Shown piece after piece: positions 3,739-48,341 of a stretch of DNA of 64,000 nucleotides (the stretch's first letter is position 1; each line of letters begins with the position of its first letter). Source of the DNA: a bacterium (GTDB lineage: Bacteria; UBA8248); contig OZ241875.1 in assembly GCA_965203325.1 (NCBI GenBank), forward strand, positions 32,001-96,000. Reading direction: 5' to 3'. Under the pieces are notes generated by a model that saw only the letters and a list, made by a program, of their open reading frames with translations, was not told the origin of the DNA and ran no database searches. The position numbers and the translations under genes were made by a program.

Positions 3739-3748
3739 TGGGGATAAA

Positions 3749-8141: not shown

Positions 8142-8208
8142 TCGGAGTTGTTTTCAGCCACCCATATCTATTGTGCAGACGCGCGAGGGGCGCGGGAGGA
8201 TGCAGGTG

Positions 8209-13899: not shown

Positions 13900-13919
13900 C
13901 ATAGGGGTGTGGAGAGGAA

Positions 13920-14420
13920 ATGGATAATCCGGTGGCGGGTGATCTGAATGGACGGGGACTGCGGATCGGCCTCGTCTCGTCGCGTTTCAACGATTTCATC
14001 GTGACGCACCTCGTCCGGGGGGCCGAGACGGCTTTGCGGCAATGCGGCGTATCCGGGACCGATATTGCGCTCGTACAGGTGCCGGGTTCGTTCGAGCTTC
14101 CGGCGGCTGCGATGCGGATGGCGAAATCGCAGAAATATGACGCCATCGTATGCCTGGGCTGCGTGATACGGGGCGCAACGTCTCACTACGATCTGGTGTG
14201 CGCCGAGGCGACGAAGGGCATCGCCCAGGTGGGTACTCAGACGGGAGTGCCGACCATTTTCGCCGTCGTCACGACGGACACGATTGAGCAGGCCATCGAG
14301 CGCTCGGGAACGAAGATGGGAAACAAGGGATACGAGGGCGGGCTGGCGGCCGTGGAGATGGCGAACTTGTTTTCGAAAATGGATGCGGATGGGAACGACG
14401 CTCCCGAAGAGGGAAAGTGA
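13920..14420 (+). CDS. ribH: 6,7-dimethyl-8-ribityllumazine synthase
   Basis: [34 protein letters not shown]. Confidence 0.96.
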
Positions 14421-14833
14421 TGGTGGAGAACAGAAAGGCGGGGCGAGAGCTTGCGTTTCAAATCCTGTATCACACCGACCGCACCGGAAGTCTGACGCCG
14501 GAGGAGGTGGAGCGCTATTGGCGGTTGCATCCGGCGGATGAGAGTTCAAAAATGTTCGCCGACAGGTTGATGGCGCTCATTCTGGAGAAAGACCGGCAGA
14601 TTAACGATTTGCTCAACGAAGCGAGCGAGAGTTGGTCGCTTGAGCGCATGGATGCCGTATCGAGGAGCATATTGCGTTTGGGCGTTTGTGAAATGTACTT
14701 TGTTCTGGATATCCCGCCTGCGGTCACGATGGATGAAGCGATTCGCCTGGCCAAACGATACGGACCGGAAAATGCGCCCGGCTTCGTGAACGGTATTCTG
14801 GATCGCCTCTATCAAGAGAAAACGGCGGTATAA
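14417..14833 (+). CDS. nusB: Transcription antitermination factor NusB
   Basis: [37 protein letters not shown]; follows ribH. Confidence 0.92.
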
Positions 14834-14836
14834 GAG

Positions 14837-15391
14837 GTGATACGACTTCGCTTGTTTCCCCAGGGACTGCATGAGGTGAAAAGTTTTGCCGCCGTTTGCA
14901 TGTTCGCGGTGGAGCATTTTCCGTTTCAAGGGCGATTGCTGCAAATCGACCGCTTGCTGGAGAGCGAGGTGAGCGGTCTCATCGAGCAGGGCAAATTGAG
15001 CGGCGCCTGGGAGTCGCAAGCCATGTTTGCCTCGAAGGGGCGGCTCGCGCCTGAGTATGTGTTGTTCGCAGGTGTCGGCTCTATGGAAGACTTGACCCTC
15101 ACAAAGCTCTACCGGCATGCGAAGGATATTTTTGGAAGGATGATGAGGGCGTCGGCGAAGAATTTATCGATGCAGGTTTCCGGTTTCGCGCAGCTTCCCG
15201 ATGACTTCACTCCCGTGGCCACGGAGATTATGAACGGTGCGATACGAGGCGTCATCGGAAATCCCTGGGATGTCGATATTCTTGTTTGCGAACCAGATGA
15301 TGAGAAATATGACGAATTGATTATGCTGAGTGAGCAAATTGCTTTCAGCAGTGTGAAGAATCGTGAACTCTCCTTGGAGGTTTTGATTTGA
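14837..15391 (+). CDS. Hypothetical protein resembling the stand-alone N-terminal domain of M17 leucyl aminopeptidase
   Basis: LLQIDRLLESEVSGLIEQGKLSGAWE...YVLFAGVG pattern; in operon with a GAGG SD. Confidence 0.5.
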   Translation: MIRLRLFPQGLHEVKSFAAVCMFAVEHFPFQGRLLQIDRLLESEVSGLIEQGKLSGAWESQAMFASKGRLAPEYVLFAGVGSMEDLTLTKLYRHAKDIFGRMMRASAKNLSMQVSGFAQLPDDFTPVATEIMNGAIRGVIGNPWDVDILVCEPDDEKYDELIMLSEQIAFSSVKNRELSLEVLI

Positions 15392-15924
15392 GCGGGGCGC
15401 CTTTGAGGACAGTTCACGATATCCGTTTCGCTCTGTTGATATGCATTTTTCTGTCAGCGGGCTGCGGCTACGAACTCGAAGGGACCTTACGACCCAAGAA
15501 ACTCGAAGCAGTGCAGACCATTTCGATATCACCATTCCTGAACCATACGGACGAGCCGGGCCTTGGACGCGCCGTTACGAAAGCGATGAGAGGAAGGTTC
15601 CTGCGGGACGGCCGCCTCCGGGTTTCCGACTCTCCCGATGCGGACGTCGCTCTCGAAGGTGTTGTGCGCGAATATCGTCTCTCTCCAATCGGCTTCACCC
15701 AGGCTGACAGGGTTCAGCGATACCGCGTCGTGGTGCGCACGCGAATACGTCTGCACGACAAAGGGCGGAAGAAATTGCTCATCAATCAGGATTTGGAGTC
15801 TTATGCCGAATTCGCTGTTTCATCCTCAATAGCGCAAAGTGACATGAGCCGCTCGAACGCCCATCAACAGGCAGCCGACTCTTTATCGAAAGACGTCGTC
15901 AGCCTCGTGTTAGAGGGTTTTTAG
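15388..15924 (+). CDS. lptE: LPS assembly lipoprotein LptE-like
   Basis: Lipobox LSAGC followed by GY; FLNHT.EPGL; upstream of holA. Confidence 0.75.
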   Translation: MSGAPLRTVHDIRFALLICIFLSAGCGYELEGTLRPKKLEAVQTISISPFLNHTDEPGLGRAVTKAMRGRFLRDGRLRVSDSPDADVALEGVVREYRLSPIGFTQADRVQRYRVVVRTRIRLHDKGRKKLLINQDLESYAEFAVSSSIAQSDMSRSNAHQQAADSLSKDVVSLVLEGF

Positions 15925-21174: not shown

Positions 21175-23664
21175 GTGATCCATCGAGCCGGCGTCGGGAA
21201 AACTGCCGGAAAACCCAAAAACATCTTTTTGCGTCTACTGGCGTCGGCGAGACGGTCGCTCGTGGATTGCGCCCTGGCGTTTGCCAACACGAGGGCTTAT
21301 CCATGGATTCTGGGCGGAACGCTCGCCGTTGTGCTCTCGTTTCTGCTCACAACCGATCTTTCGGCGCCACGCGTGTCTTTCGAGGTGGGCGATGTCGTTC
21401 CCAGGGACATTAAAGCTCCGCAAGATATGCGCGTGGTCGATCCCATCGCCACGAATGCGAAGCGCCAGGCAGCCAGAGAAAAAGTCCTGCCTCGTTACGA
21501 TATTGACACCCAACTTTCACAAGTTGTCCTTACCAGGTTGAATGGCGCATTTGAATCCATTCAACGGTCGGTAGACAAAGAACTTGAGAAAGTAAAAGCC
21601 GAGCAATTGAAGAAACGGGCCAAGCAGAAGAGCCGGACTATTTTCTCCGAGTCGGAAGCATATCGGGAAATGTACGCTACTCCCACATTCGTCAAGGCCG
21701 AGAGCGCCTTTCACAAGCTCGTGGGAGATAAGGTTCCGAAGGAATTGGCCGTTTGGTTGAGAAACGAGAGGTTCGCGAACTGGATTCGGGAAGATATCTC
21801 CAAATTGTTGAAGGCGGCGTATGCGCATCAAATCGTGAGTGACAAGCAATTATACGCCACCCATGCGGCGAAAGGGATTACGGCGCGTGACATTAGGACA
21901 GGGAATCGCGTTTCCGTCAGCCGGTCTGTGAATCCCCTGGAGCTAAGGCAGGTAGATACATTACTCAAACAAGAAGCTCGAAAAATACTTCCCCAACAAA
22001 TGCCTCAGAAAGTCGGGGCTTTGCTAATTGCTCAAACCTTGAAAATGATTCGACCGACGCTGACATTCAACAACAGGGCGACACTTGAGAGCAGAGAAAA
22101 GGTTGCAGCCTCCGTCCCCCCTGTTTCCGAGGTGCTCAAGCAAGGGGAGATGATCGTTCGCGAGGGAGAACGTTTGAGCGAAGGACAAATTGTAAAACTC
22201 AAGAGTTTGCAGAAAATCTACCGACAAAGTCATGTGATAGGCAATTTCACCGGCACGGCTTTGGTGGTTTTCATTCTCCTCATTCTGGCATGGGTTTGTG
22301 TGCAGAAATACGATGTGAGTTTTTTGTCATCGCAAAAAAACGTCACACTTTTTGTAATACTGCTTTTGAGCCAAGCCGTTTTGCTGAAATTGGGCATTCT
22401 CTTTAGCGAAGTGTTGCATGAAACTTTCCGGGGGATCCCACTCCACTCGTTTTACTATATCATTCCATTTTGCTCCGCTTCTCTTCTTGCCGCCGTTTTG
22501 CTGGGACGCTCATCGGCGGTATTGATGGCAGTTTTCTCCGCCGTTCTGACCGGACTGATTTTGCCGAATCACATCAATTTCAGCCTCGTCGCCCTCGGCG
22601 GCGGCGTGCTGGCGGCCATCCGATGGAAAGAATATCGGCGCAGGACTTCCGTGCTCATCGTGGCGTTCATCCTGGGTTTGTTGGGCGCTGCGCTCGCCCT
22701 GGGTTTCAATATGCAAGAGGGTTTCAGCGCCGCAATCACGCAGTGGACGGATATTCCCATCGCCTTGCTCGGCGGCCTTTCGAACGTCATCATCGTCGCG
22801 GGGGCCATGCCCCTGCTCGAGTCGATTTTCAAACTCACGACCGATATGCGTCTTCTGGAGTTGGCCGACCAGAATCACCCGCTATTGAGAAAGATGGTCG
22901 TCAGCGCGCCGGGCACCTATCACCACAGCCTTCTTGTAGGCAACCTGGCGGAGGAGGCGTCCGAGGCGATCGGCGCGAACCCGCTTCTGACCCGTGTAGG
23001 TGCGTATTTCCACGATATCGGCAAGATGATGAAACCGGAATATTTCATCGAAAACCAGGGGCGGGAAAACCGTCACGATAGACTGAAGCCCAACATGAGT
23101 GCGCTCATCCTGGTCAGCCATGTAAAAGAGGGAGTGGAACTCGCCAAAAGCCATCAACTGCCCAAAGAGATTATCGATTTGATTCAGCAACATCATGGCA
23201 CATCCTTGATTCGGTTCTTTTACGAGAAAGCGAAGAAGGAAAATGGGGATAGCGTGACAGAAGAGTTTTTCCGCTACCCGGGGCCAAGACCTCAGACGAG
23301 AGAGGCGGGCATCCTGATGCTGGCTGATATGGTGGAGGCATCGTCGCACTCGCTTTCGGATCATTCTCATGGGCGCCTCACCGCTTTGGTAGATAGAATT
23401 GTCCAGAGTGCTTTTGCAGAGGGGCAATTGGACAATTGCAGCCTCACGCTCAGGGATTTGAGCAACATTCAAAACGCCTTCATGCGTGTTTTGGTTGGTA
23501 TTCATCATCACCGGATTCATTATCCAGGGCAGGAAGACGCTCCTAAGAAAGGAGCTGCGAATGGAAGTCCTCATCAAAAACCAGCAAAAGCTGTTCGCGC
23601 TGGATCACAAAGCGCTGAAGCAACGTTTGGAAGTCATACGGAAAGCTCTCCGGTCCGGAGATGA
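21175..23664 (+). CDS. 7TM-HD membrane phosphohydrolase (PgpH-like, putative cyclic-di-AMP phosphodiesterase)
   Basis: N-terminal TM, large extracytoplasmic domain, several TMs, then APGTYHHS, YFHDIGK, YFIENQ, QHHGT, FRYPGPRPQ, MLADMVEA. Confidence 0.88.
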   Translation: MIHRAGVGKTAGKPKNIFLRLLASARRSLVDCALAFANTRAYPWILGGTLAVVLSFLLTTDLSAPRVSFEVGDVVPRDIKAPQDMRVVDPIATNAKRQAAREKVLPRYDIDTQLSQVVLTRLNGAFESIQRSVDKELEKVKAEQLKKRAKQKSRTIFSESEAYREMYATPTFVKAESAFHKLVGDKVPKELAVWLRNERFANWIREDISKLLKAAYAHQIVSDKQLYATHAAKGITARDIRTGNRVSVSRSVNPLELRQVDTLLKQEARKILPQQMPQKVGALLIAQTLKMIRPTLTFNNRATLESREKVAASVPPVSEVLKQGEMIVREGERLSEGQIVKLKSLQKIYRQSHVIGNFTGTALVVFILLILAWVCVQKYDVSFLSSQKNVTLFVILLLSQAVLLKLGILFSEVLHETFRGIPLHSFYYIIPFCSASLLAAVLLGRSSAVLMAVFSAVLTGLILPNHINFSLVALGGGVLAAIRWKEYRRRTSVLIVAFILGLLGAALALGFNMQEGFSAAITQWTDIPIALLGGLSNVIIVAGAMPLLESIFKLTTDMRLLELADQNHPLLRKMVVSAPGTYHHSLLVGNLAEEASEAIGANPLLTRVGAYFHDIGKMMKPEYFIENQGRENRHDRLKPNMSALILVSHVKEGVELAKSHQLPKEIIDLIQQHHGTSLIRFFYEKAKKENGDSVTEEFFRYPGPRPQTREAGILMLADMVEASSHSLSDHSHGRLTALVDRIVQSAFAEGQLDNCSLTLRDLSNIQNAFMRVLVGIHHHRIHYPGQEDAPKKGAANGSPHQKPAKAVRAGSQSAEATFGSHTESSPVRR

Positions 23665-24223: not shown

Positions 24224-24622
24224 ATGGGTAGCCTTCGACTCATCATCGGCTTGATTTTGGCATTGGCGATATCGAGCTTCGGCGTCATCAACATGAAGCC
24301 GGTGACCGTTGCCTATTATCAGGGCAGCGTCAACTTGCCTCTTTTTTATGTTCTGTTGGCCGTGTTTGTATGCGGGTTCATGGTGGCATGGTTTGGCGGG
24401 GCATTGGACAGATTGAAGTTCAGGAGTCAGATAGGAAAATTAAAGCGGGAAGTCAAGACGCTGGAGAATAATCTGGATGAGGCGCGGGAGCAAAGCGGCA
24501 AGCTTCTTACGATGGGAAATACGCAAATCGATGAATCCGTCACCGCACGTGATGAGCCCACGTCAAAAACGGATTCGAAGTCTCAGATCAGCCTGTCCCC
24601 CCGCGAATCGAAGGCGGAATAG
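24224..24622 (+). CDS. LapA (DUF1049)-family membrane protein
   Basis: Two TM helices separated by N..PVTV, LPL..VLL, then coiled coil. Confidence 0.65.
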   Translation: MGSLRLIIGLILALAISSFGVINMKPVTVAYYQGSVNLPLFYVLLAVFVCGFMVAWFGGALDRLKFRSQIGKLKREVKTLENNLDEAREQSGKLLTMGNTQIDESVTARDEPTSKTDSKSQISLSPRESKAE

Positions 24623-24624
24623 GC

Positions 24625-27309
24625 ATGTCCCCTCCTAAAGGCACCCTGCAAGCCAGGAAAGAAAAAAATACATCCGGCAAAAGTAACCCTGGCCCTTCTC
24701 CTGCGATGCGCCAATATCTGGAAATGAAAAGACGCTACCCGGACGCGATACTGTTTTTCCAGTTGGGTGATTTTTTCGAAATGTTCTATGAAGACGCGAA
24801 ACTCGGGGCGAAAGTGTTGGAACTCGCGTTAACATCGCGCCAGAGTGATGACAAGGGACCTATCCCGATGTGTGGTGTGCCTTGTCATTCGGCCTCCTCC
24901 TATTGTGGGCGATTGCTGGAAGCGGGCTACAAAGTCGCCATATGTGAGCAGGTGGAAGACGCAAGAGAAAGTAAGGGAGTTGTAAAACGTGAGGTAACTC
25001 GAGTCCTGACCCCAGGCACTTCGATTGCCGACCTCGAGTTGCTTGATAGCAAGGAATCTCAATACTTGGCGGGGATCACCGTATCGGCCAGAGAAGGAGA
25101 GACGCTTTGGGGAATGGCATGGCTCGATAGTTCGACCGGTGAGTTTTGTGCAACGCAGGTGGAAGGCGATGCTGCCGAGACGCTGATTTATAATCAATTG
25201 GAGAGGCTCTCTCCTCGCGAACTTATTTTCCCGGATGCATTTTCCCCTCCAGATGGGTTGAAAAACAAAATTGATGAGCTAAGCATTCATGTTGAAAAAA
25301 GACCGGACGCCACTTTTTGTGAGTCACTTGATGCCAAAAGCCTGGGTCCCGCATTTGCGGATGAAGCGAATGTTCTGGCGTATCCGGTAGCAGCAGATTC
25401 CGCCGTAGGTGTTTTAACGTATCTCAAAGAAAACCAGCCTGGAGATTTTCCCCATCTCAAGCCTGTCTTTTTCTCTAGACTCTCAGACTCCATGATTCTC
25501 GATACAGCCACGTTGCGAAATTTGGAAATTACCCGTTCGGCAGTGGATCGGGGGAAACGGGGCACTCTGTTCGGTTTGCTGGATGAAACGTCAACGGGTA
25601 TGGGGGGACGGCTGCTGAAAAAATGGGTGCTTTCACCATTGATTCAAAAAAAAGCCATCGAATATCGCGCCGAATCAGTAGAAGAACTCGTGAACAATTC
25701 CGAAATCCTGAATAGACTCAAAAAAACCCTTGAACCTATTCAAGATATCGAGCGGCTTCTCGGACGCGTGGGTTCTCAGACTGCGAATGCCCGAGATATA
25801 GCTGGCCTGGGCGGATCTTTGGCCATATTGCCGGAAGTTTATGAGGCGCTCGAAGGGATGGCTTCTGAATTGTTTTGTTCCGTCCGGTCGGGCTGGGATT
25901 CACTCGAGGACGTAGCGTTGGAACTGAAGAACGCGATTGTAGATGACCCGCCCGTTTCCATTCGAGAAGGTGGAATATTTCGAACTGATTACGACCCGGA
26001 ACTTGCCCGCCTGAGAAAGGCGCAGCAGGAGGGTGATTCGTGGCTCAAGAATTACGAAAGCGGGGAAAAAGAACGAACGGGGCTGCCTCTGAAAATCGGG
26101 TTCAACCGCGTTTTTGGATATTATCTGGAGATTCCCAAACGCTTCAGTGAGCAGGCGCCGATGGAATATACGCGCAAGCAGACCCTCGTTTCTGCCGAGC
26201 GATACATCACTTCCGAGTTGAAAAAGATGGAAGAAGACCTACTCGGCGCGGAGGAAAAAGCCCATCACCTCGAGTTCATGCTTTTCGGGCGCTTAAGAAC
26301 GCAAATATCTCAACACGCCAAGCGAATACTTGCCGCCGCCGAGAGGATAGCGATTCTGGATGCCGTTTTGTCCATGGCACTCGTTGCGCGCAAATTCGGA
26401 TATGTCAGACCCCGAATTATGGATTCTACCGATCTGGAAATCATGGAGGGGAGGCATCCCGTCATAGAGGCGGAGAATCCTGGTCTCTCTTTCGTGCCGA
26501 ACGATTTGTCGATCCGTGACGACCGCCGAATACTCATTATCACAGGGCCGAATATGGCCGGTAAATCCACTTACCTGCGCCAAACGGCACTCATCATTCT
26601 AATGGCGCAGATTGGCAGTTTCGTACCAGCCAAGAGCGCGAAAATCGGTTTGGTTGACAGGGTGTTCACTCGCGTTGGTGCGCATGACCGACTTTTGGAG
26701 GGGCAAAGCACCTTCATGGTGGAGATGGTGGAAACGGCCACCATATTAAGAGAGTCGACCCGGAAGAGTTTCATCGTCCTGGACGAGGTCGGGCGAGGTA
26801 CGAGCACCTATGATGGCGTCAGCATTGCATGGTCAATTGTTGAGTATCTTCATAACAAGGTCCAGCACAGGGCGAGGACTTTGTTTGCGACCCATTATCA
26901 TGAGTTGGCCGAACTCTCAAAAGAGCTCGCTTGCGTGAAAAACTTGACGGTCGAGGTCCGGGAGTGGGGCGATGAAATCGTTTTCTTGCGAAAAGTAACC
27001 GATGGCAGTTGCGATAGAAGCTACGGCATTCAGGTAGGCAGGCTGGCGGGACTTCCGGAAGAGGTTATCGACCGAGCCAAGACGTTGCTCTCCAGATTTG
27101 AGAGTACGGAGACGACCTCTCGTTCCAGCGACGAAAAATCCAATCTGGAAAATCGCTGGGACAATGGGCAATTGCCTTTGTTTTCAGGAACAGAATCGAA
27201 AATTGAAAATTTGTTGAAAAGCATCGATCCGGATTCCATGACACCTCGCCAAGCTCTCGAAACCCTGTATGAACTCAGGGAAATCATGGCAAACGTTGAG
27301 CAGCGATAA
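24625..27309 (+). CDS. mutS: DNA mismatch repair protein MutS
   Basis: GDFFEMFYEDA, PMCGVP, ITGPNMAGKSTYLRQ, STFMVEM, DEVGRGTST, ATHYHEL, SYGIQV. Confidence 0.97.
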   Translation: MSPPKGTLQARKEKNTSGKSNPGPSPAMRQYLEMKRRYPDAILFFQLGDFFEMFYEDAKLGAKVLELALTSRQSDDKGPIPMCGVPCHSASSYCGRLLEAGYKVAICEQVEDARESKGVVKREVTRVLTPGTSIADLELLDSKESQYLAGITVSAREGETLWGMAWLDSSTGEFCATQVEGDAAETLIYNQLERLSPRELIFPDAFSPPDGLKNKIDELSIHVEKRPDATFCESLDAKSLGPAFADEANVLAYPVAADSAVGVLTYLKENQPGDFPHLKPVFFSRLSDSMILDTATLRNLEITRSAVDRGKRGTLFGLLDETSTGMGGRLLKKWVLSPLIQKKAIEYRAESVEELVNNSEILNRLKKTLEPIQDIERLLGRVGSQTANARDIAGLGGSLAILPEVYEALEGMASELFCSVRSGWDSLEDVALELKNAIVDDPPVSIREGGIFRTDYDPELARLRKAQQEGDSWLKNYESGEKERTGLPLKIGFNRVFGYYLEIPKRFSEQAPMEYTRKQTLVSAERYITSELKKMEEDLLGAEEKAHHLEFMLFGRLRTQISQHAKRILAAAERIAILDAVLSMALVARKFGYVRPRIMDSTDLEIMEGRHPVIEAENPGLSFVPNDLSIRDDRRILIITGPNMAGKSTYLRQTALIILMAQIGSFVPAKSAKIGLVDRVFTRVGAHDRLLEGQSTFMVEMVETATILRESTRKSFIVLDEVGRGTSTYDGVSIAWSIVEYLHNKVQHRARTLFATHYHELAELSKELACVKNLTVEVREWGDEIVFLRKVTDGSCDRSYGIQVGRLAGLPEEVIDRAKTLLSRFESTETTSRSSDEKSNLENRWDNGQLPLFSGTESKIENLLKSIDPDSMTPRQALETLYELREIMANVEQR

Positions 27310-27436
27310 CAGCAGGGCCAGGTCGCAGCGCATAATCCGGAAGTGCTTCACGGACATGAAGCCAGGGAAGTCAAACAAGGTATTGAGAGCTTTTTTCATA
27401 TGCGATAGCATTGAATTTCAAGGCCAAGGGGAGCAT

Positions 27437-28042
27437 ATGTTATCTAACGCCCGGAAAACATTTGTTCTTAGGAAACTTGCCATAGCCATCTGTATGATTT
27501 TCGCTTTGGCGGGACCGGCGATTTCCGCAACAGATAGCCAAGATGGAATTCGGATAAAAGATATTATTGTTATCAAGAAGAATGGGCGGTTGCTTGTTTT
27601 TGGTTCTCTTTTGGGTGCATTTTCGCCGAAATTGTTGGAAGCTATTCATAGCGGTGTAACGACGAAGTTCATCTTTGACGTAAGTCTCTTGCGCACTCGC
27701 AAGCTGATTTATGATTTGGAAGTCACCTCGCGGCAATTACATCACCAAGTGAAATATAGCGCCTTGAAAAAAACATACACTTTTCATCTCAAAGAAGGGG
27801 AAAAAGAGATCGAGAGAAAAGTGACGAAAAGCCAAGGCGAAATGACGGACTGGATGCGCGAGCTGAATGGCGCGCCCATTGTCCCTGGCAAGGTCTTGCC
27901 CCCAAATAGTCGATACTATGTCAAAATCAGAGCGCGGATGAATCATGTTGATTTTGTTTTTCCCTTTAATTACTTGCTTGCTTTTTGGGGGAAGCAGTCT
28001 GATTGGAGCTATTCCCAGACATTTAGTTCTGAAGGAATGTGA
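27437..28042 (+). CDS. Exported DUF4390-like protein
   Basis: Signal peptide; EAIHSGV..F.F.V.L pattern; position upstream of ntrY; GGAG SD. Confidence 0.65.
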   Translation: MLSNARKTFVLRKLAIAICMIFALAGPAISATDSQDGIRIKDIIVIKKNGRLLVFGSLLGAFSPKLLEAIHSGVTTKFIFDVSLLRTRKLIYDLEVTSRQLHHQVKYSALKKTYTFHLKEGEKEIERKVTKSQGEMTDWMRELNGAPIVPGKVLPPNSRYYVKIRARMNHVDFVFPFNYLLAFWGKQSDWSYSQTFSSEGM

Positions 28043-28045
28043 ATT

Positions 28046-30307
28046 GTGCATCCAACGCGACTGAATCAGGAGATCTCTTCGCGCCGACGAAGAACACTTC
28101 TGCGATCCTTCATCGCTTTGATCATCATTGCGACTCTTTCGTTTACGGCTTGGATTTACTTCAAAGAGCTTGAGCCGGAAGTCCCACTGTTAAACAATGT
28201 TGTCGTATTTGCGCTAGTGAATCTGAGCATCATTCTGCTCATGGTGGTTATTCTCCTGGTAGCAAAGCACTTGGTGCGTCTTTACTACGAGGGGAGAACG
28301 GGTGCCGGTCGTTCACGCTTGCAATTAAAACTCGTATTGGCGTTTGTCGGATTTACGCTCATCCCTGTAGTGGCTCTTTTCGTGGTGGCCAGCGGTTTGA
28401 TTAACCAAAGTTTTAATGCTTTGTTCAACATGAACGTGGAGAGAGCGCTCAAAGGCTCTTTCGAGGTGGCTCAAACGTATTATCGCGAGGTGGAGCGAAA
28501 CACGCTGTTCAGCGCGAGTCGCCTTGCGCTGACGTTGGAGAAGACACGACCTGATATAATAACGAACTCCAAGGCGGCTGAAAAAACATTGGAGGCCGAG
28601 AGAAAGAACTTGGGGGTGGATTTCATCCAACTCTACGATAGGGAGCGGAAGGAGATCGTATCGGTCAGGCGCCCGGGGTTGGCGCAAGCCACAACGTTTT
28701 CGCCACTGGTGGGATACGTAGATCAAGTGATTGATGGGGAGTCGCGCTCAAGTATAGAGAATTGGGAAAAAGGAGATGTCATCTATGGCGTGGCGCCTTT
28801 GAAGAGTCAAAAAAAAGTGGTGGGGTTTATCGTCGTATCCAAATACGTGCCTGATCGACTTGTGGCGAAGATCAGAGGCATATCGGACTCCTTTGTGAAC
28901 TATAAAGAGTTGGAACTGTCCAAGAATCCAATCAAAGCAAACTACATCATTACTTTCTTGGTGGTTACTTTGCTCATTCTCTTTGCGGCCATCTGGTTCG
29001 GCTTCTACCTCGCTCGAGGGATTACGGTTCCCATTGAGAAATTGGCGGAAGCTACAAGGGCGGTGTCGGATGGCGACCTCGAACATCGCGTGGATGCGCA
29101 GGCAGATGGCGAAGTGGGGATTTTGGTCAACGCATTTAACAGCATGACGGAGGAATTGTTGGCCAACAAGGAAAAAATCGAAGAATCTTCTGAAATCTTG
29201 AGCCGTTCCAACCTGGAAATCGACAGAAGACGCAGGTATATGGAAGCGATGCTCGAAAATATCGGAGCGGGTGTAATATCAATCAATCGCCGAGGGCGCG
29301 TTACTATCCTCAACAAAGCAGCCGGGGAGTTGCTGAGGATTGAACCGCAGAATGCCGTAGGGCAAATGTTCAGCGAGGTTTTCGAAAGCACACATCTTGA
29401 GCCTGTTCGTCAGTTGATGCGCTCTATGCGAGCCCGAGAACACCAAAGCGCTTCGGAGCAAGTGGAGGTCATGATTGATGGCCGTGTGCTGACACTACGC
29501 GCGAGCTTGACTCTGCTGAAGAGCGCAGATGGCGGCAGACTTGGTGCCGTCATTGTGTTTGATGATATGACGGCTTTGATACGGGCTCAAAAAGTGGCCG
29601 CATGGCAGGAAGTGGCCCGTGGCATCGCGCACGAGATCAAAAATCCACTTACGCCGATTCAACTTTCTGCTCAGAGAATGAGACGAAAATTTGATAATGA
29701 GGCCTATGATTTTACCGAAGTATTTGAATCTTGCACGGATACTATTATCAATCAGGTAACAAGCCTGATTGATATGGTGGATGAATTCAGCCGATTCGCT
29801 CGCATGCCGGAGCCGAGATTGAGGCTCTGCGGGTTTGTCCCCCTCATTGAGGATGTTGCAAATTTATATCGTGGCAGGAAGGGGGATGTGAAATTTTCGA
29901 TTCATATCGATGTTGGGAATGCTGCTGTCATGGCGGATCCCGAGCAGTTGCAGCGCGTGTTTATCAATTTATTGGAAAATGCCTTTGAATCCCACGATGT
30001 CGAGGGCGAGATTGATTTGCAAGCGTGGAGTGATAAAGACAGAAATATGATAGTTGTTGAAGTTGCCGACCAGGGGCAAGGTATATCGGAAGATGTGAAA
30101 GGCCATATATTCTCGCCTTACTTTTCGACAAAGGATAGAGGCACCGGGTTGGGCTTGGCTATATGTCACCGCATTGTGGCGGATCACAATGGAACAATAG
30201 GCGTGCGAGATAACCATCCGTCTGGTTCCATTTTTCGCGTAACGTTGCCACTGGCGCCTGCTGTGGACATCACGCCCGAAAAGCAAAGGACGGCTTCCAT
30301 TGGATAA
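28046..30307 (+). CDS. ntrY: NtrY-like PAS/HAMP sensor histidine kinase
   Basis: 4 TMs, HAMP, PAS, AWQEVARGIAHEIKNPLTPIQLSAQR (H-box), NLLENA, DQGQG, GTGLGL. Confidence 0.9.
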   Translation: MHPTRLNQEISSRRRRTLLRSFIALIIIATLSFTAWIYFKELEPEVPLLNNVVVFALVNLSIILLMVVILLVAKHLVRLYYEGRTGAGRSRLQLKLVLAFVGFTLIPVVALFVVASGLINQSFNALFNMNVERALKGSFEVAQTYYREVERNTLFSASRLALTLEKTRPDIITNSKAAEKTLEAERKNLGVDFIQLYDRERKEIVSVRRPGLAQATTFSPLVGYVDQVIDGESRSSIENWEKGDVIYGVAPLKSQKKVVGFIVVSKYVPDRLVAKIRGISDSFVNYKELELSKNPIKANYIITFLVVTLLILFAAIWFGFYLARGITVPIEKLAEATRAVSDGDLEHRVDAQADGEVGILVNAFNSMTEELLANKEKIEESSEILSRSNLEIDRRRRYMEAMLENIGAGVISINRRGRVTILNKAAGELLRIEPQNAVGQMFSEVFESTHLEPVRQLMRSMRAREHQSASEQVEVMIDGRVLTLRASLTLLKSADGGRLGAVIVFDDMTALIRAQKVAAWQEVARGIAHEIKNPLTPIQLSAQRMRRKFDNEAYDFTEVFESCTDTIINQVTSLIDMVDEFSRFARMPEPRLRLCGFVPLIEDVANLYRGRKGDVKFSIHIDVGNAAVMADPEQLQRVFINLLENAFESHDVEGEIDLQAWSDKDRNMIVVEVADQGQGISEDVKGHIFSPYFSTKDRGTGLGLAICHRIVADHNGTIGVRDNHPSGSIFRVTLPLAPAVDITPEKQRTASIG

Positions 30308-32432
30308 GGGCCATGTGCTTATCGTCGATGATGAGCGTGAAATACTCGTGAGCCTGGAAGATGTCTTGCTGGATGAAGGGTATCGCGTAGAACGGGCCGA
30401 GTCCGGAGAAACTGCTCTTCAGTTGGTCCGGACCGAAGCTCCCGATGTGGTTCTGGTTGATGTGTGGATGCCCGGCATTGATGGAATCAAGACTTTACAA
30501 GCAGTGAAAGAGTCCAACGCAGATATCGAAGTCGTCCTGATGTCGGGCCACGGCAATATTGAGACCGCAGTGGCCGCAACAAAGTCAGGCGCTTTTAATT
30601 TCATTGAAAAACCTCTATCCATTGATACGGTTTTGCGCATAGTCGATTCCGCCGTTCAAGCGCGAAGGGCCAAGGATATTAAGGCGAATAATGTTGGCGA
30701 CGTGATACTTGACGGTGCCAGCAAGCATGTTCAGAGGGTTCGAAGGGCAATCAGGAGAGCGGCGAAAGATATTGGGCCCTTGCTGATTGCAGGTGAAAGG
30801 GGAACCGGCAAGCGTTTTGTCGCAAGGGCGATCCACGAGAACGGCGCCGGAAAAGAAGAAGGCTTTCGGCCTGTTCATTGCCGTTCGCTGTTTCCAATGG
30901 CGGAGATAGGCGAATGGGAAGATGCCCTGGAGCGGCTGGTGCCCGATACCTTTCAAGGGACTATATATCTGGATGGTCTGGAACAGTTGCCCATGGCGGG
31001 GCGTGAAAAATTTCTTGTTCAATTTCTTGAGCGCATAGAGGATTCAAAGCGTTTAATCGTATCCGTTGATTACATAGGAACCCCAAAGGATAAGGCTTAC
31101 GTGCAAGCCTTATCTGATAAAATTGGCGCGGATGTAATACACTTGCCCCCTTTGCGCGAACGCAAAGGGGATATTTTGCCGTTAGCAAACAGATTCTTGA
31201 GTGAATGCGTTGAAGTTGGCGGGCATGAAAAGGAATTTCCTGAGGATGTCATTGCGGTTCTGGAAGACTATGACTGGCCGGGCAATATTGCTGAACTAAA
31301 AGGTGCAGTGACCAAAGCGGCATCCACATCGCAAGGATCGGAGATTCACATCGACCACTTGCCGGACACGATACGCGAGACTTCTGATTTCGAGGTGAGC
31401 ACCTCAAAAAATGATACCCCGTCCAATTTTAATGTGGCCAGAACGCAGTGGGAGAGACAGTACCTCGCCTTCCATCTGGAGGAGCACGGTTGGGATATCA
31501 ATAAGACCGCCAAGGCGGTGGGCATGACGAAACCTGCTTTAATGCGAAAAATTAAAACATACAATATAGAGCCCATATTGCCGGCGTCGACGACGCTAAG
31601 GGAATCAAATCAGAGGAGCATTTCGAAAAGTGTCGTATTGTATGGCCGGGGGCTTCACTCAGGGCTGAAAACCGGATTGATCATCGAGCCTCTGCCACCG
31701 GGGAGCGGGATACAATTCGGCAACCTGACAAGCCCCGATACTGTGAGGGCGAGTGTCGATTTCGTGGATGGCACCAACCATGCGACAAACTTGCGCAATG
31801 GGACTGTGACTGCTCGAACGATTGAGCATCTCATGAGCGCGCTGCACGCATACAAGATAAGCAATATACTCATCAAAATGAGTGAGGAAGTGCCCGTCAT
31901 GGATGGGTCGGCAGTGGAGTTTTGTCGCTTGCTTGAAGAAGCAGGCATTGAAGATCAGAAAGAAAAACGCGAGGACTTGTGGATTGATAAGGCATATGAG
32001 GTAGGTGAACCGAATGACGGAAAGGGCTACGTTCGTATCGAGCCGGCGGATTCTTTTTCGGTTTCATACCTTATTGATTATCCTAAACCGATTGGGAAGC
32101 AAACCTACGTGTATGAGCACAAGAATGCATTGGGTTTTCAGGAAGAAATCGCACCGGCCCGTACCTTTGGTTTTGTCAATGAGTTGGAGTCGCTCGAAAA
32201 AATGGGCTTGGCCGAGGGAGGTCGTTGGGATAACGTAATTCTCGTGGACAAAGCACGCGTTGTGAATACCCGATTGCGATTTCCCAATGAGTTCGTTCGC
32301 CATAAAATTCTTGACGTGATCGGAGATCTGTATTTAACCGGTCGTCCTGTCCGAGGAAAAGTAACTGCTGAGAGAAGTGGACACCGGCATAATGTAGCTT
32401 TGGTCAAGAAATTGATGGAAGTCCATGGCTGA
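30300..32432 (+). CDS. lpxC: Fusion: NtrX-like response regulator (REC, degenerate sigma54 AAA+, Fis-type HTH) + UDP-3-O-acyl-GlcNAc deacetylase LpxC
   Basis: REC: LIVDDE, LVDVWMP, FIEKP; GERGTGK, LPPLRER, YDWPGNIAEL; HTH; from ~31611 QRSI..GRGLHSG, TIEHLMSAL, VPVMDGSA, IAPARTFGF, RHKILDVIGDL, SGH. Confidence 0.92.
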   Translation: MDKGHVLIVDDEREILVSLEDVLLDEGYRVERAESGETALQLVRTEAPDVVLVDVWMPGIDGIKTLQAVKESNADIEVVLMSGHGNIETAVAATKSGAFNFIEKPLSIDTVLRIVDSAVQARRAKDIKANNVGDVILDGASKHVQRVRRAIRRAAKDIGPLLIAGERGTGKRFVARAIHENGAGKEEGFRPVHCRSLFPMAEIGEWEDALERLVPDTFQGTIYLDGLEQLPMAGREKFLVQFLERIEDSKRLIVSVDYIGTPKDKAYVQALSDKIGADVIHLPPLRERKGDILPLANRFLSECVEVGGHEKEFPEDVIAVLEDYDWPGNIAELKGAVTKAASTSQGSEIHIDHLPDTIRETSDFEVSTSKNDTPSNFNVARTQWERQYLAFHLEEHGWDINKTAKAVGMTKPALMRKIKTYNIEPILPASTTLRESNQRSISKSVVLYGRGLHSGLKTGLIIEPLPPGSGIQFGNLTSPDTVRASVDFVDGTNHATNLRNGTVTARTIEHLMSALHAYKISNILIKMSEEVPVMDGSAVEFCRLLEEAGIEDQKEKREDLWIDKAYEVGEPNDGKGYVRIEPADSFSVSYLIDYPKPIGKQTYVYEHKNALGFQEEIAPARTFGFVNELESLEKMGLAEGGRWDNVILVDKARVVNTRLRFPNEFVRHKILDVIGDLYLTGRPVRGKVTAERSGHRHNVALVKKLMEVHG

Positions 32433-32483
32433 TTTTGAGTACATCCCGAACGATTCCGCCTGCTAAATCATGGAACATCACTT

Positions 32484-33539
32484 TTGAATGAGGATCGTCT
32501 GACATACCGCGATGCGGGCGTCGATATCGAGTTGGGCGAGGGTTTCGTTCAGGCTATCGCCCAAATTGTAAAATCCACCCATTCTAACCAAAGTGGCCGT
32601 ATTCTGAAGGGGACGACGGATTTTGCAGATTTGTTCCGTCTGGGCGGGGAATATGAAGATCCTGTACTAGTTTCAGGCACCGACGGCGTCGGCACGAAAT
32701 TGCTCTTGGCCCAAGAGTTCGAGCGTCATGATTCCATAGGGGTCGACTTGGTGGCCATGTGCGTCAACGATATCCTAACCATGGGGGCAGAACCGCTTTT
32801 TTTTCTTGACTACATTGCGACGGGCAAGATTGATCAGAGCGTATTGAAGACAGTCGTATCCGGAATTGCGCGAGGATGCCGGGAAGCAGGATGCGCCCTC
32901 CTCGGGGGTGAGACCGCCGAGATGCCTGATATGTACCAGTCGGGCGTGTATGATCTCGCCGGATTCGCCGTGGGAGTGGTTGAGCGTGAAAACCTCGACA
33001 ATAGAACGCCTGTAAAAGCAGGTGATGTTATTGCAGCTCTTCCTTCTTCAGGAATTCATAGCAACGGATATTCCTTGGTGCGAAAAATATTTAATTCAAA
33101 AGAAACACGGGATGCGACGGCGCAAAAGCTAGGCGCTCCCATTGAAGATGTTTTATTGGAGCCGACCCGGATTTACGCCAAAGGGGCCCATTCCGTTCGA
33201 AGAGAAGAGGGAATTAGCGGCATCGCGCACATCACTGGAGGCGGAATTCCGGGAAACGTAAACCGTGTCATGCCAGATGAATTGCAGGCTAAATTTTATC
33301 CTGAAAAATGGGTGGCGCCCGAGATATTCTCATTGATCCAAGAATTCGGCCCGGTTGAGAGCGCGGAGATGTATCATACTTTCAACATGGGCTTGGGTTT
33401 TGTCTTTCTCGTGAGATCGGAGCGAGCCGAGTCTTTGCTCGGATGTTTGAAAAATGCGGGAGAACAAGCCATGGTTGTTGGCGAAGTCGCCAATAAACCG
33501 AAGGGCGGCCAATCCGTCGTCATTGAGGGCGTATTTTAG
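32484..33539 (+). CDS. purM: Phosphoribosylformylglycinamidine cyclo-ligase
   Basis: YRDAGVDI, GTDGVGTK, DLVAMCVND, GGETAEMP, SGIHSNGYSL, TFNMGLG. Confidence 0.96.
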   Translation: MNEDRLTYRDAGVDIELGEGFVQAIAQIVKSTHSNQSGRILKGTTDFADLFRLGGEYEDPVLVSGTDGVGTKLLLAQEFERHDSIGVDLVAMCVNDILTMGAEPLFFLDYIATGKIDQSVLKTVVSGIARGCREAGCALLGGETAEMPDMYQSGVYDLAGFAVGVVERENLDNRTPVKAGDVIAALPSSGIHSNGYSLVRKIFNSKETRDATAQKLGAPIEDVLLEPTRIYAKGAHSVRREEGISGIAHITGGGIPGNVNRVMPDELQAKFYPEKWVAPEIFSLIQEFGPVESAEMYHTFNMGLGFVFLVRSERAESLLGCLKNAGEQAMVVGEVANKPKGGQSVVIEGVF

Positions 33540-34192
33540 TGCATTCAGGAACACGATTACGTGTGGGTGTTTTGGCTTCGGGTCGTGGGTCCAACTTGCA
33601 AGCTCTTATTGATGCCGCGCGGAACGCGAATTTCCCGGCGGAAGTTGTATTGGTGCTGAGCGACAGAAAAAATGCGTATGCGCTCGAGCGCGCCTCGATG
33701 GCCGGTATACGGACCAGACATCTGGCGCCGAAGGAGGAGGGTTTTTATCGGAAGATGGGCGATGAGATTGAAAATTACGGAATCGATCTCGTCTGTTGCG
33801 CTGGTTTCATGCGCATTTTACCGCCGGAGTTTGTCAACCGTTTCTCAGGAAGAATCATCAACATTCATCCCTCGCTTCTGCCGAGTTTCCCTGGTCTGCA
33901 TGCACAAAGAAAAGCCTTGGATGCCGGTGTGAGAGTGACCGGCTGCACGGTCCACTTTGTGGACGAGGGAGTGGATACGGGACCGATTATTTTGCAGGCC
34001 GCCGTACCGGTTCTGCCCCGTGACGATGAAGAAACCCTTTCGGAGAGGATTCTCGCTTATGAGCACCGCATCTACCCACTGGCGGTGCGACTCATCGCCG
34101 AGGGGAGCGTTCGTTGGGTTGATGGTGTTGCGGAATACATGGGCGACGCTTTTCTGGATGGCGGAGGTTTCATCTCACCTATTTCGGAGTAG
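33539..34192 (+). CDS. purN: Phosphoribosylglycinamide formyltransferase
   Basis: SGRGSNLQAL, AGFMRIL, INIHPSLLPSFPG, GCTVHFVDEGVDTGPII. Confidence 0.96.
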   Translation: MHSGTRLRVGVLASGRGSNLQALIDAARNANFPAEVVLVLSDRKNAYALERASMAGIRTRHLAPKEEGFYRKMGDEIENYGIDLVCCAGFMRILPPEFVNRFSGRIINIHPSLLPSFPGLHAQRKALDAGVRVTGCTVHFVDEGVDTGPIILQAAVPVLPRDDEETLSERILAYEHRIYPLAVRLIAEGSVRWVDGVAEYMGDAFLDGGGFISPISE

Positions 34193-34215
34193 TCATTCAT
34201 AAAGGATTAAGAGTT

Positions 34216-34944
34216 TTGCGCAAATTGAGTTTTTTCATACTGGTATTCGGTTTTTCGTTTTTCGCATTTTCGCAAGAGTACGCTCTCGCCGCGTCTATGG
34301 CGGAAGAATCGCGTCCAAAGGCGGAGAAAATAATCACCGAACTTCAGAAAAAATATGACACACTTGAATCTCTGCAAGCCTCATTCGAGCAGAAAAATGA
34401 ATTGAAGTCCCTCGGGCGAACGACCAAGTCGAGCGGAACCCTGTTGTGGAAGAAGCCCGGCAGACTGCGCATGGAGTACGTTACGCCTGAAAAGCAGCTT
34501 TTGGTTTCCGATGGCCGCACGTTTTGGCTCTACACCGCTCGCTTCAAGCAGGTGATGGTTTCCGAAGCCGGGGGCTTGGGGTTTGGCGCCACTCCTTTGT
34601 TATTTTTGTCAGGAAAGGGGAATTTGAAAAAGAATTTTCATGTAACTGTGGAAGAGGTTGGAATTGCCGAACGAAGCGGGGGGATTTGGAGGGCCGGTCA
34701 GCCCCATCGCATTCGCATGGAGCCGAAGGCTGCGAGCGCCTCGTTTCGTCGAATGTGGATCGAAGTGGAGCCTGAAAATTTTAGAATCCTCACTCTGGTT
34801 TATATTGATAACATCGGTAACAAAAGCCATCTGCGGTTTTCAAATATCAAAGAAAACGTCAGAATCAAAGCAGAGGAATTTCGATTCACCGTGCCGCCGA
34901 ACGTCGAAGTTCTGCAAATGCCGTCTCACAGTGGCCAGCGATAA
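34216..34944 (+). CDS. lolA: Outer-membrane lipoprotein carrier LolA
   Basis: Signal peptide; ASFEQ, KKPGRLRMEY..PEKQLLVSDG, FRFTVPPNVEV. Confidence 0.85.
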   Translation: MRKLSFFILVFGFSFFAFSQEYALAASMAEESRPKAEKIITELQKKYDTLESLQASFEQKNELKSLGRTTKSSGTLLWKKPGRLRMEYVTPEKQLLVSDGRTFWLYTARFKQVMVSEAGGLGFGATPLLFLSGKGNLKKNFHVTVEEVGIAERSGGIWRAGQPHRIRMEPKAASASFRRMWIEVEPENFRILTLVYIDNIGNKSHLRFSNIKENVRIKAEEFRFTVPPNVEVLQMPSHSGQR

Positions 34945-41267: not shown

Positions 41268-41358
41268 TTTGGAGTTTAGCTCGTAGACGGATGGGAAAAA
41301 TCCTGATAACGTGTTTTCAGGGTATAGAGAGCCGCTTACGCGAAAAAAGGAAGGCATT

Positions 41359-43278
41359 TTGAATCAATTTTACAAGAATTTGGCGCTTTGGCTGATTATC
41401 GGGTTGATAATGGTTGGTTTGTTTCAAGCCTTCAATAGCCCGCGCTCAACCGACCGAACGGTTGTCTACAGCGATTTCCTGCAAGCGGTATCTGATGGAC
41501 AGGTGACCGAAGTGATCGTCCAGGGAGACAATATTCGGGGTCGCTACCTGAGCGGTAGGTCCTTTCACACCCACGCTCCCAAAGACCCGAAGCTGATCGA
41601 CACACTTAGAGCCAAGGGCGTTCGCATCACGGCGCAGCCCGTAGAACAAAACTCCTGGTATATGAACATGCTGTTGAGTTGGCTGCCTATGCTGGTGATG
41701 CTGGGCGTTTGGATTTTCTTCATGCGCCAGATGCAAATGGGCGGCTCCAAAGCGCTGTCGTTCGGAAAAAGCAAAGCGCGAATGATGCCCGAATCCGCGA
41801 AGAAAAAAATTACGTTCGCAGATGTGGCCGGCATCGAGGAAGCCAAGGAAGAACTTGAAGAACTCGTTGATTTTCTCCGCGACCCGCAGAAGTTCACGCG
41901 CCTGGGCGCACGTATTCCCAAGGGTGTCCTCATGGTTGGTCCTCCGGGCACGGGCAAAACCTTGCTGGCGCGGGCCATCGCGGGCGAAGCGGACGTGCCG
42001 TTTTTCTCGATAAGCGGGTCGAGTTTTGTGGAGATGTTTGTCGGAGTCGGGGCGTCGAGAGTCCGGGATTTGTTCGAGCAGGGCAAAGCAAATGCGCCTT
42101 GCATCATTTTCATCGATGAGATTGATGCCGTCGGGCGACACAGAGGCGCCGGCCTGGGGGGTGGTCACGATGAGCGTGAGCAAACGCTCAATCAACTTCT
42201 CGTCGAGATGGATGGTTTTGAGTCGAATGACGGGGTCATCCTGATGGCAGCGACGAACCGGCCGGACGTGCTGGACCCGGCTCTGCTCAGGCCTGGCCGC
42301 TTTGACCGCCAGATTGTCGTTTCCTTGCCCGATATTAAAGGGCGCTTGGCCATTTTGAAGGTGCATGCCGTAAAAGTGCCGCTCGATGAATCCGTCGATT
42401 TGAGTCTCATAGCACGCGGAACCCCGCGATTTGCGGGCGCTGACTTGGCGAATCTTTTGAACGAATCCGCACTTCTCGCGGCGCGCCGGGGAAAACAGTC
42501 CGTGGAAAATGAAGACTTGATGGAAGCGAAGGATAAAGTCTTGATGGGCAAGGAGCGGCGCAGCATGGCGCTCAGTGAAAAAGAGAAGAAAAACACGGCC
42601 TACCACGAAGCGGGGCACGCCCTTGTTTCATTACTGATACCCGGGACGGACCCGGTAGAGAAGGTGACGATCATCCCGCGTGGTTTTTCGTTGGGAAGTA
42701 CATGGTCCTCTCCTCTTGAAGATCGTTACAGCAACGACAAGACATTTTTGACGAACCAGCTTGCCTGCCTGATGGGTGGACGTGCGGCGGAGATGCTGGT
42801 CTTTGAAGAATTGACGACAGGGGCGAAAGCCGATATCCAGACGGCGACCGACTTGGCGCGAAGCATGGTTTGTGAATGGGGGATGAGCGAAAAACTCGGC
42901 CCCTTGGCATATGGAAAAAAACATGAGCAAATCTTTTTGGGCCGTGAAATCTCCCAGCACAGGGATTATAGCGACCAGGTGGCCTTGGAAATTGATAACG
43001 AAGTGAAGGATATGGTCTCGTCGAGTTATGAGAGAGCGTATAAGCTACTCGAGGAAAATCGGGACAAGCTCGATTTGCTCGCCAATGCGCTACTCGAGTA
43101 TGAAACCATCGATCTCAAAGACATCGAGTCTTTGATGGAAACCGGGGAGATTTCCAGGAGTCGCAAGCGAAAAGACGGGGTTGGTGAAGGAAAGACCCCT
43201 GTCTCTTCTGAACCGGAGGAAAAACCTCGAGAGGATCCGCAAGGGTCACCGACGGACCTGGCGCCCGGCCAAGCCTAG
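41359..43278 (+). CDS. ftsH: ATP-dependent zinc metalloprotease FtsH
   Basis: Two TMs, [30 protein letters not shown]. Confidence 0.97.
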
Positions 43279-46184: not shown

Positions 46185-46313
46185 TATCTTCTTGATGTAA
46201 CAGATGTGAACGGTACGAGAAAATAAATTTCATGGTTCTGGAGGGATGAGTTTCTTATCGCAGATATGACATGTGCTGTCGTTGAATACCGCCTGTGCTT
46301 CAGAAGGTTTGCG

Positions 46314-46925: not shown

Positions 46926-46962
46926 AGGGGCACATACGGCCAATCCCTGTTGGAGGGCTGTT

Positions 46963-47556: not shown

Positions 47557-47560
47557 ACTC

Positions 47561-48325: not shown

Positions 48326-48341
48326 GGTGAGGGAAATCCAC

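Follow-up and report, generated by a model that had tools for sequence, protein, structure and literature searches.

We describe here a fusion gene found in a 64,000-nucleotide (nt) stretch of the genome of a marine bacterium (GTDB lineage UBA8248; assembly GCA_965203325.1, contig OZ241875.1, positions 32,001 to 96,000 of the forward strand), which is called the window below and whose first letter is position 1. The gene lies at 30300..32432 on the + strand and encodes a protein of 710 amino acids (aa), in which an N-terminal part resembling the response regulator NtrX is joined to a complete LpxC. The sole LpxC of this bacterium is thus fused to a response regulator beside a sensor kinase, an arrangement that suggests an undescribed direct switch on outer-membrane synthesis. 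We read the fusion as an enzymatic response regulator, a known class, with a new output. On comparison across genomes it is real, ancient and phylum-wide, and direct control of LpxC by the receiver is a proposition to which we give an even chance.

The open reading frame (ORF) begins with a TTG codon, which has AAGGA about 9 nt upstream, and contains no internal stop; a GTG at 30315 offers an alternative start, which is the one used in 705-aa database entries. From the N-terminus, the protein consists of a Response_reg receiver (REC, PF00072; residues 6-114, 30315..30641; E 3e-28, 98.6 bits against a cut-off of 30.2), a degenerate AAA+ module with its lid (residues 139-365, 30714..31394), a Fis-type helix-turn-helix (HTH) of the HTH_8 family (residues 383-421, 31446..31562; 23.4 bits against a cut-off of 22), a variable linker (residues 422-437, 31563..31610) with no conserved Met and low model confidence, and the complete LpxC domain (PF03331; residues 438-706, 31611..32417; profile positions 1-267 of 268), all on the + strand. 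The LpxC match reaches 280.5 bits in PF03331 (cut-off 27, E 2e-83) and 240.3 bits in TIGR00325 (lpxC; cut-off 187.25), and the chain stops 4 residues past this domain, so that a C-terminal tail is absent. The first-pass annotation, made from the letters of the window, had reported an uninterrupted 710-aa frame with receiver, AAA+-like, HTH and LpxC parts. The ORF call and Pfam bear this out, and the motifs that it named were all found: the DD pair at residues 10-11, D54 in LVDVWMP, S82 and K104-P105 in the receiver, and TIEH (E509-H510), HKILD (H668..D672) and SGH (H695) in LpxC. Because the frame stays open over 710 aa, carries four ordered domain matches and is conserved in more than 150 other genomes, a chance origin is ruled out. 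The NtrX-LpxC ORF is a genuine and conserved single gene.

Within the genus, 22 further genomes were compared, and in 19 of them the full-length fusion occupies a single open frame at 69-98% identity; of the remaining three, G002 is truncated at a contig end, G008 has a short form and G015 shows two aligned stretches within one 662-aa frame. Matches at E <= 1e-60 occur in 49 of 51 Nitrospinota genomes (33 full length, 10 as short REC-LpxC proteins and 6 cut or divergent), and the completeness of the two non-matching genomes is 91% and 93%. The GTDB phylum to which genome G036 belongs, the second phylum below, yields matches in 113 of 120 genomes; 57 of these match in one full-length alignment, and in most of the others the LpxC match lies inside a frame of 460-750 aa. 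Separate genes in relatives and a stop or indel at the junction had been named in the first-pass annotation as signs that would speak against a fusion. Relatives in the genus, the phylum and the second phylum carry the fused gene, and contigs assembled from runs of four other studies, aligned to 30000-33000, show no stop, indel or joint where the REC/HTH part meets LpxC. Contig X10 (15,391 nt) spans the whole interval with 49 substitutions and 0 gaps, contig X3 (7,431 nt) covers 30000-32935 with 15 substitutions and 0 gaps, and contig X6 bridges 31159-32182. An artefact of assembly or frameshift was rejected, since the fusion recurs across the genus and two phyla and the contigs of other studies cross the junction without gaps.

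The genome contains no PF03331 match other than the fusion, which answers the earlier question of whether a further lpxC exists; it also encodes LpxA and LpxB. As the sole match in such a genome, and with its catalytic residues invariant, the fused LpxC should be the working enzyme, and deacetylase activity on UDP-3-O-acyl-GlcNAc is predicted. In an alignment of 106 family members, E509, H510, T622, H668, K669, D672, D676 and H695 of LpxC are invariant; we take these to be the zinc and catalytic residues E78, H79, T191, H238, K239, D242, D246 and H265 in the E. coli numbering. The domain aligns over its whole length with the LpxC of P. aeruginosa, with TIEH, ARTFGF, HKILDxIGD and SGH in place. 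D10, D11, D54 and K104 of the receiver are likewise invariant among the 106 members, residue 82 is Ser or Thr throughout a second family alignment of 28 sequences, and NtrX is the best NCBIfam model when the window receiver is scored alone. When 89 long forms are compared, mean pairwise identity reaches 0.60 in REC and 0.63 in LpxC; it falls to 0.45 in the lid, 0.42 in the HTH, 0.33 in AAA+ and 0.20 in the linkers. As judged by such comparisons, the conserved core of the system is the kinase, the receiver and LpxC.

The gene immediately 5' of the fusion encodes an NtrY-type sensor histidine kinase (28046..30307, + strand; 753 aa; NtrY_N, HAMP, PAS, HisKA and HATPase_c by Pfam), whose 3' end shares 8 nt with the 5' end of the fusion gene, and phosphotransfer from NtrY to the receiver is predicted from this adjoining and overlapping position. 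It is preceded by a DUF4390 (PlrP-like) gene (27269..28042, + strand, as the longest ORF; PF14334 at residues 92-246, E 4e-26), the product of which is probably periplasmic; a later Met with a hydrophobic, signal-like stretch (MLSNARKTFVLRKLAIAICMIFALAGPAISA), judged by eye, suggests that its start lies near 27434. The overlap and the preceding DUF4390-like gene had both been noticed in the first reading, and ORFs and Pfam agree with it. By Pfam, the order of DUF4390, NtrY-type kinase and regulator at the window locus matches the three-component layout of the PlrP-PlrS-PlrR type, and this order and the overlapping genes are shared with the NtrY/NtrX (PlrS/PlrR) systems with the DUF4390 protein PlrP, known from Bordetella and, for NtrX, from Brucella (5m7n, 5m7o and 5m7p). 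According to the accessible text of a 2026 paper in the Journal of Bacteriology, DUF4390/PlrP is the periplasmic third component of NtrYX systems and restrains the phosphatase activity of PlrS (PMC13001219). Its survey of DUF4390 covers Proteobacteria only, and in that same text LpxC has no occurrence (PMC13001219).

Residues 5-421 of the fusion align end to end with NtrX of Brucella abortus (5m7n, E 4.5e-52), the HTH_8 part aligning with the HTH of that protein, and they show the layout of NtrX: REC, an AAA+ module without GAFTGA and a Fis-type HTH, encoded after ntrY. The NtrX equivalog model NF051870 is the best NCBIfam model for these residues, with 247 bits, a score below its cut-off of 600. 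On these matches the N-terminal part is NtrX-like or NtrX-derived, and not an NtrX equivalog. Unlike NtrX, the fusion adds a complete C-terminal LpxC and occurs outside Proteobacteria. Whereas Brucella NtrX keeps LDE and FREDLFHRL, the window protein has lost the Walker B Glu and the arginine fingers. Its Sigma54_activat match is partial (residues 139-240, profile positions 3-115 of 168, E 2e-10) and is followed by an AAA_lid_14 match at residues 286-365. Walker A (GERGTGK) is present in the window protein and kept in 88 of the 89 long forms; the Walker B pair D-E, which is D-G in the window, is found in just four of the 89 and the arginine-finger motif in none. The GAFTGA loop is absent from the window protein and from all 22 long forms of the 28-sequence alignment, and the HTH is kept in all 22. 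Thus the AAA+-like domain of the first-pass annotation is present, but it has decayed catalytically and is probably ATPase-dead; its remnant may still bind nucleotide. The possibility of an active sigma-54 activator (bacterial enhancer-binding protein) was rejected from the missing GAFTGA loop, the rarity of the Walker B pair, the lost arginine fingers and the partial Pfam match. The HTH may still provide DNA binding and autoregulation, and this would not be the essential output: DNA binding seems dispensable, because natural variants without AAA+ and HTH still have LpxC and the kinase, and their phospho-acceptor site is invariant.

These variants make up a series of three forms, REC-AAA+-HTH-LpxC (long), REC-HTH-LpxC (medium) and REC-LpxC (short), distributed over several phyla. 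Long forms (700-750 aa) number in the hundreds in databases, under the labels Nitrospinae/Nitrospinota, Tectomicrobia, Thermodesulfobacteriota and Schekmanbacteria. Short forms of 415-469 aa are abundant under the labels Nitrospirota, Deltaproteobacteria and Binatia, with both domains in all of the best 120 hits, and the short forms of the natural deletion series measure 422-505 aa. Further carriers come from named genome records: Thermodesulfovibrionia, Binataceae, Thermoanaerobaculia, Holophagales, Terriglobia and Desulfomonile. Public sources label the fusion proteins solely as 'LpxC' or 'NtrX'. A medium REC-HTH_8-LpxC protein of 514 aa, from which AAA+ is absent (L096:2651-4195 of G058; also in G059-G061), and a short form of 447 aa (L097) both lie in the second phylum directly behind DUF4390 and NtrY genes; a short form of the 429-aa type (L024) has the same context, and those of L035 and L037 stand behind NtrY alone. 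The order and sizes of neighbouring ORFs, judged without Pfam, place a short form in the slot of the window gene in G008 and G023. Altogether, an NtrY-type kinase gene lies immediately 5' of the fusion in six of 17 Pfam-annotated loci outside the window (L022, L024, L035, L037, L096 and L097). The receivers of all five short forms tested score best as NtrX (NCBIfam). The medium form parallels the NtrX/PlrR proteins of beta-proteobacteria that lack AAA+, which are known from the accessible text of PMC13001219.

The relationships of the LpxC domains were examined in an unrooted tree of 131 sequences (IQ-TREE quick search, LG+G4); 172 had been collected, 41 long forms of P0055-P0119 were left out, and every fourth short form of the database search was taken. 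A branch of length 0.58, with a support of 100 in the Shimodaira-Hasegawa-like approximate likelihood-ratio test (SH-aLRT), separates all 100 fused domains (54 long and 46 short) from the 31 standalone LpxCs. The long or short state changes five to six times on this tree, and starred branches force at least three of the changes. In Nitrospinota, a short form sits inside a group of long forms with a support of 100, and a second group of short forms has a long form as its sister with a support of 99; the two deletions leave different junctions, one of which retains the HTH tail. Gain and loss of the middle module are indistinguishable on a tree without a root. The simplest history would be that NtrX and LpxC fused and the middle module was then lost repeatedly, because NtrX is the best model for the receivers of the tested short forms, long and short forms have the DUF4390-NtrY context in common and the intermediate REC-HTH-LpxC exists. 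The fused clade has eleven residues of its own, among them K526 (E in 77% of standalone LpxCs) and R642 (S in 94% of them).

No pre-fusion state, that is, unfused ntrX and lpxC as neighbours, was found among the loci L039, L048 and L025. L039:4905-7947, from the metagenome-assembled genome (MAG) of a Nitrospira, and L048:5977-8905, from an Acidobacteriaceae MAG, have a standalone lpxC (311 and 310 aa) directly 3' of genes for NarL-type regulators (REC and GerE), near which a REC-Hpt protein or a HisKA_3 kinase is also encoded; two-component systems may here be wired to lpxC in a second, unrelated way, or the arrangement may be a coincidence. L025, a Thermoanaerobaculia contig, carries another short fusion (REC-LpxC, 2023-3363), and just 3' of it lies a 299-aa ORF (3717-4616) with a weak and partial LpxC match (profile positions 181-244 of 268, E 8e-11), which may be a decayed second copy of LpxC.

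In E. coli, P. aeruginosa and A. aeolicus, LpxC is a standalone protein, and such enzymes are controlled through proteolysis by FtsH/LapB, through binding of MurA or through Lon. The fused LpxC resembles these enzymes in that the whole domain is matched, the catalytic motifs align and it is the sole copy beside LpxA and LpxB. This situation is different, however, in the 437-residue N-terminal regulator, the lack of a C-terminal tail and the separate clade, whose stem measures 0.58 changes per site. Response regulators with enzymatic outputs, namely CheB (REC-methylesterase), PleD and WspR (REC-GGDEF) and RpfG (REC-HD-GYP), share with the fusion an N-terminal receiver, a flexible linker and a catalytic domain, and are likely the working analogy, especially for the short forms, although their catalytic folds and pathways are unrelated to LpxC. 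LpxC also forms part of a conserved two-function polypeptide in the LpxC-FabZ fusions of Bacteroidota, Chlorobi and Verrucomicrobia, as described in the accessible part of PMC3087551, and the NCBIfam model of that fusion (NF009667) also matches the window protein. The partner is C-terminal and metabolic there, and N-terminal and devoted to signalling here.

Two-component links to LpxC exist elsewhere, as far as the available portions of two papers go: in R. sphaeroides, loss of ntrYX raised lpxC mRNA 8.8-fold and also raised lipopolysaccharide (LPS), with no NtrX site upstream of lpxC (Lemmer et al. 2020, PMC7240162), and in D. vulgaris the response regulator DVU2934 has lpxC as its single target (Rajeev et al. 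2011, PMC3333781). Unlike the fusion, both cases involve separate genes and control at the mRNA level. In the available text of a 2025 review of lipid A regulation in the Journal of Biological Chemistry, NtrYX appears only as a transcriptional regulator of lpxC, and a term search showed that the words 'fusion', 'fused' and 'response regulator' are absent from it (PMC12444477). No description of an NtrX-LpxC or REC-LpxC fusion, and no lipid A biosynthetic enzyme as the output of a response regulator, was found in the full texts searched in PMC and bioRxiv, a scope that lies outside subscription journals and InterPro. The statement in the first-pass annotation that it knew of no characterised example agrees with this literature.

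The reading that we favor is that NtrY sets the phosphorylation of REC, which in turn would directly control the fused LpxC; its prospects appear to us evenly balanced. The balance between the kinase and phosphatase activities of NtrY would probably be set in the periplasm, together with the DUF4390 protein; NtrY would thereby set the phosphorylation level of Asp54 of the receiver, and the state of the receiver would act directly on the tethered LpxC. Its likeliest physical form would be docking and undocking, or dimerization driven by the receiver, as in regulators of the CheB or PleD type, and the outcome would be a lipid A flux matched to the envelope signal. We infer from the sequences that phosphorylation occurs, that NtrY is the donor and that the activity of LpxC changes. 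The main argument is comparative: direct control is favored because REC and LpxC are conserved, whereas the middle module between them decays or is deleted, and because AAA+ and HTH are both gone in the short forms, LpxC is the only possible output of the receiver there. The first-pass annotation had supposed that a periplasm-sensing kinase could tune LPS synthesis by phosphorylating the enzyme. The comparisons lend support to tuning through the fused enzyme, but that wording was wrong, since the receiver, and not the enzyme domain, would be phosphorylated.

Structure prediction adds hints on the coupling of the two domains. The receiver of a CheB-type regulator lies against the catalytic domain and blocks it until phosphorylated. 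AlphaFold2 (AF2) models of a 429-aa short form (95 sequences) gave a predicted local distance difference test (pLDDT) of 84.3 and a predicted template modelling score (pTM) of 0.78, with a disordered linker at 121-150. As we read its definition, the pTM is a mean of terms none of which exceeds 1, so the receiver must contribute to a pTM of 0.78 when LpxC makes up 64% of the residues, and it would be placed relative to LpxC with some confidence. The window protein (106 sequences) has a mean pLDDT of 82.6, with each domain well folded and low-confidence linkers at 130-135, 362-375 and 427-433, the last of which is under 50. The short-form pTM of 0.78 hints at a CheB-like packing of REC on LpxC; the pTM of the long form is 0.46. 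When REC (1-125) and LpxC (432-710) were predicted as separate chains, the score was 0.06 against a mark of 0.32, and this was counted neither for nor against binding.

Several of the results weigh against direct control. The long-form pTM of 0.46 corresponds to no fixed domain arrangement, and the placement of REC relative to LpxC in the short form is a bound derived from a single pTM number. The linkers between REC and LpxC in short forms are 31-65 aa long, unconserved and modelled as disordered; such long, unconserved and disordered linkers exclude a rigid helical coupling, and a passive tether would look alike. Eleven of the 17 annotated fusion loci outside the window have no adjoining NtrY kinase. 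The quick tree method itself warns of long branches, and the 31 outgroups were picked by similarity. R642 and L648 align with positions that, we assume, line the acyl-chain passage of LpxC, and some of the clade-specific residues, these two among them, may reflect the substrate rather than contact with the receiver.

Part of this evidence would also be expected if the fusion were passive, a 'Rosetta-stone' joining in which NtrX is a transcription factor of envelope genes, perhaps including its own operon, to which a neighboring, co-expressed lpxC became attached; LpxC would then be a constitutive passenger and phosphorylation would govern DNA binding only. The flexible, unconserved linkers and the long-form pTM fit such a history, as does the HTH that is kept throughout the long forms of the 28-sequence alignment, and the known control of lpxC by NtrYX and DVU2934 is transcriptional in the accessible text of the sources (PMC7240162, PMC3333781, PMC12444477). 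A receiver left without output should decay, however, and yet REC is conserved like LpxC and the HTH evolves faster than REC (0.42 against 0.60 identity). Moreover, proteins that have lost both HTH and AAA+ keep a receiver with an invariant phospho-acceptor, often beside NtrY, in several phyla and after at least three independent changes of form, and we consider a passive fusion unlikely. A close variant of direct control is that phosphorylation sets the amount of LpxC and not its activity, the receiver exposing or hiding a degron or recruiting FtsH or Lon in the manner of RssB, in place of the enterobacterial route through a C-terminal degron and LapB. LpxC regulation in the bacteria studied is mostly proteolytic, as far as the available part of the review goes (PMC12444477). 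The fused enzyme ends 4 residues past its domain, ftsH lies 9 kb 3' of the fusion, the disordered basic linkers could act as entry sites for a protease, and the genome has no match to the LapB zinc ribbon, a weak point given so short and unspecific a model. But ftsH is outside the operon and the linkers are unconserved, so that no shared degron is visible; we rate control of stability as somewhat less probable again than a passive fusion.

The wiring may also run in reverse, with the LpxC domain sensing the occupancy by substrate or product and modulating DNA binding by NtrX, as a feedback from lipid A precursors to transcription. The HTH is directly N-terminal to LpxC, and enzyme domains act as ligand sensors in some regulators. 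The sole LpxC, with all its catalytic residues invariant, is presumably the working enzyme, however, and the short forms contain no DNA-binding domain to regulate, which makes this explanation improbable. It is most improbable of all that the fusion exists at the DNA level only, so that free LpxC would arise from an internal start, for example at Met409, or from cleavage of the linker, and the joining would have no regulatory meaning. The ATG at residue 409 is preceded by aaggcgg, which is AAGG-like, and AF2 models the linker as disordered. Against this, Met409 and Met414 are unconserved beyond the genus, the linker holds no conserved Met, no + strand promoter-like site lies 5' of the LpxC domain (such sites being overall at chance), and the frame has been kept open over at least two phyla and a very long time.

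The surroundings of the fusion in the window are rich in envelope genes. LptE (15388-15924), a LapA domain (24224-24622), LolA (34216-34944), FtsH (41311-43278), LptC (46266-46925), LptA (46963-47556) and an LptB-like ABC ATPase (47480-48325) were all found by Pfam, as the first reading of the region had proposed, and MurJ, RseP and RpoN are encoded in the window too. These genes are scattered over about 33 kb and do not form one operon with the fusion. A scan of 27000-34300 for promoters and terminators remained at chance (10 against 6.9 expected and 6 against 7.2, respectively) and gave no operon boundaries. The interval 46266-50977 is a classical lptC-lptA-lptB-rpoN cluster, with hprK somewhat further 3'; sigma-54 is therefore encoded in the genome, and the fused regulator nevertheless lacks GAFTGA. 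The LapA-domain gene is solitary, just 5' of mutS, with no lapB adjoining, and PF18073, the LapB zinc ribbon, has no match genome-wide, a weak negative with a 28-position model that also responds in Gram-positive controls. Adjoining lptE are four successive ORFs on the - strand (12637-15417; 421, 222, 190 and 102 aa), and near it is a 905-aa ORF (8110-10827, - strand), all without a Pfam match at E <= 1e-5. At 21175-23664, 3' of phoH, an 829-aa receptor with seven transmembrane segments and an intracellular HD hydrolase (7TMR-HDED, 7TM-7TMR_HD and HD) is an ordinary, uncharacterised signalling protein. Sequence nearly identical to 30000-33000 is present in 20 public runs of nine studies, labelled mostly as sponge metagenome or marine metagenome, and the bacterium appears to be sponge-associated.

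LpxC carries out the essential, flux-controlling step of lipid A synthesis and is a long-standing antibiotic target. To our knowledge, the balancing of its activity is understood in no more than a few Proteobacteria, where it involves proteolysis by FtsH/LapB or Lon and activation by MurA. In the broader reading, which we place a little short of an even chance, the committed step of LPS synthesis would be the output of a response regulator in whole phyla of non-proteobacterial diderms (Nitrospinota, the second GTDB phylum and parts of Nitrospirota, Binatota, Acidobacteriota and Thermodesulfobacteriota), with a periplasm-facing DUF4390-NtrY sensor switching LpxC post-translationally through the receiver Asp in place of the protease control known from Proteobacteria. 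For entire phyla, the gene architecture itself points to candidates for the regulator, its kinase and a periplasmic co-sensor, and makes the regulation of LPS in these diderms directly testable; with its long, medium and short forms, nature has in effect carried out a domain-deletion experiment. The interest of the fusion should be high for specialists in LPS and in two-component systems. It also offers a clue to what NtrYX systems sense and to why they affect the proteobacterial envelope. If the proposed control is true, homeostasis of the envelope and LPS would be an ancient core function of the NtrYX family.

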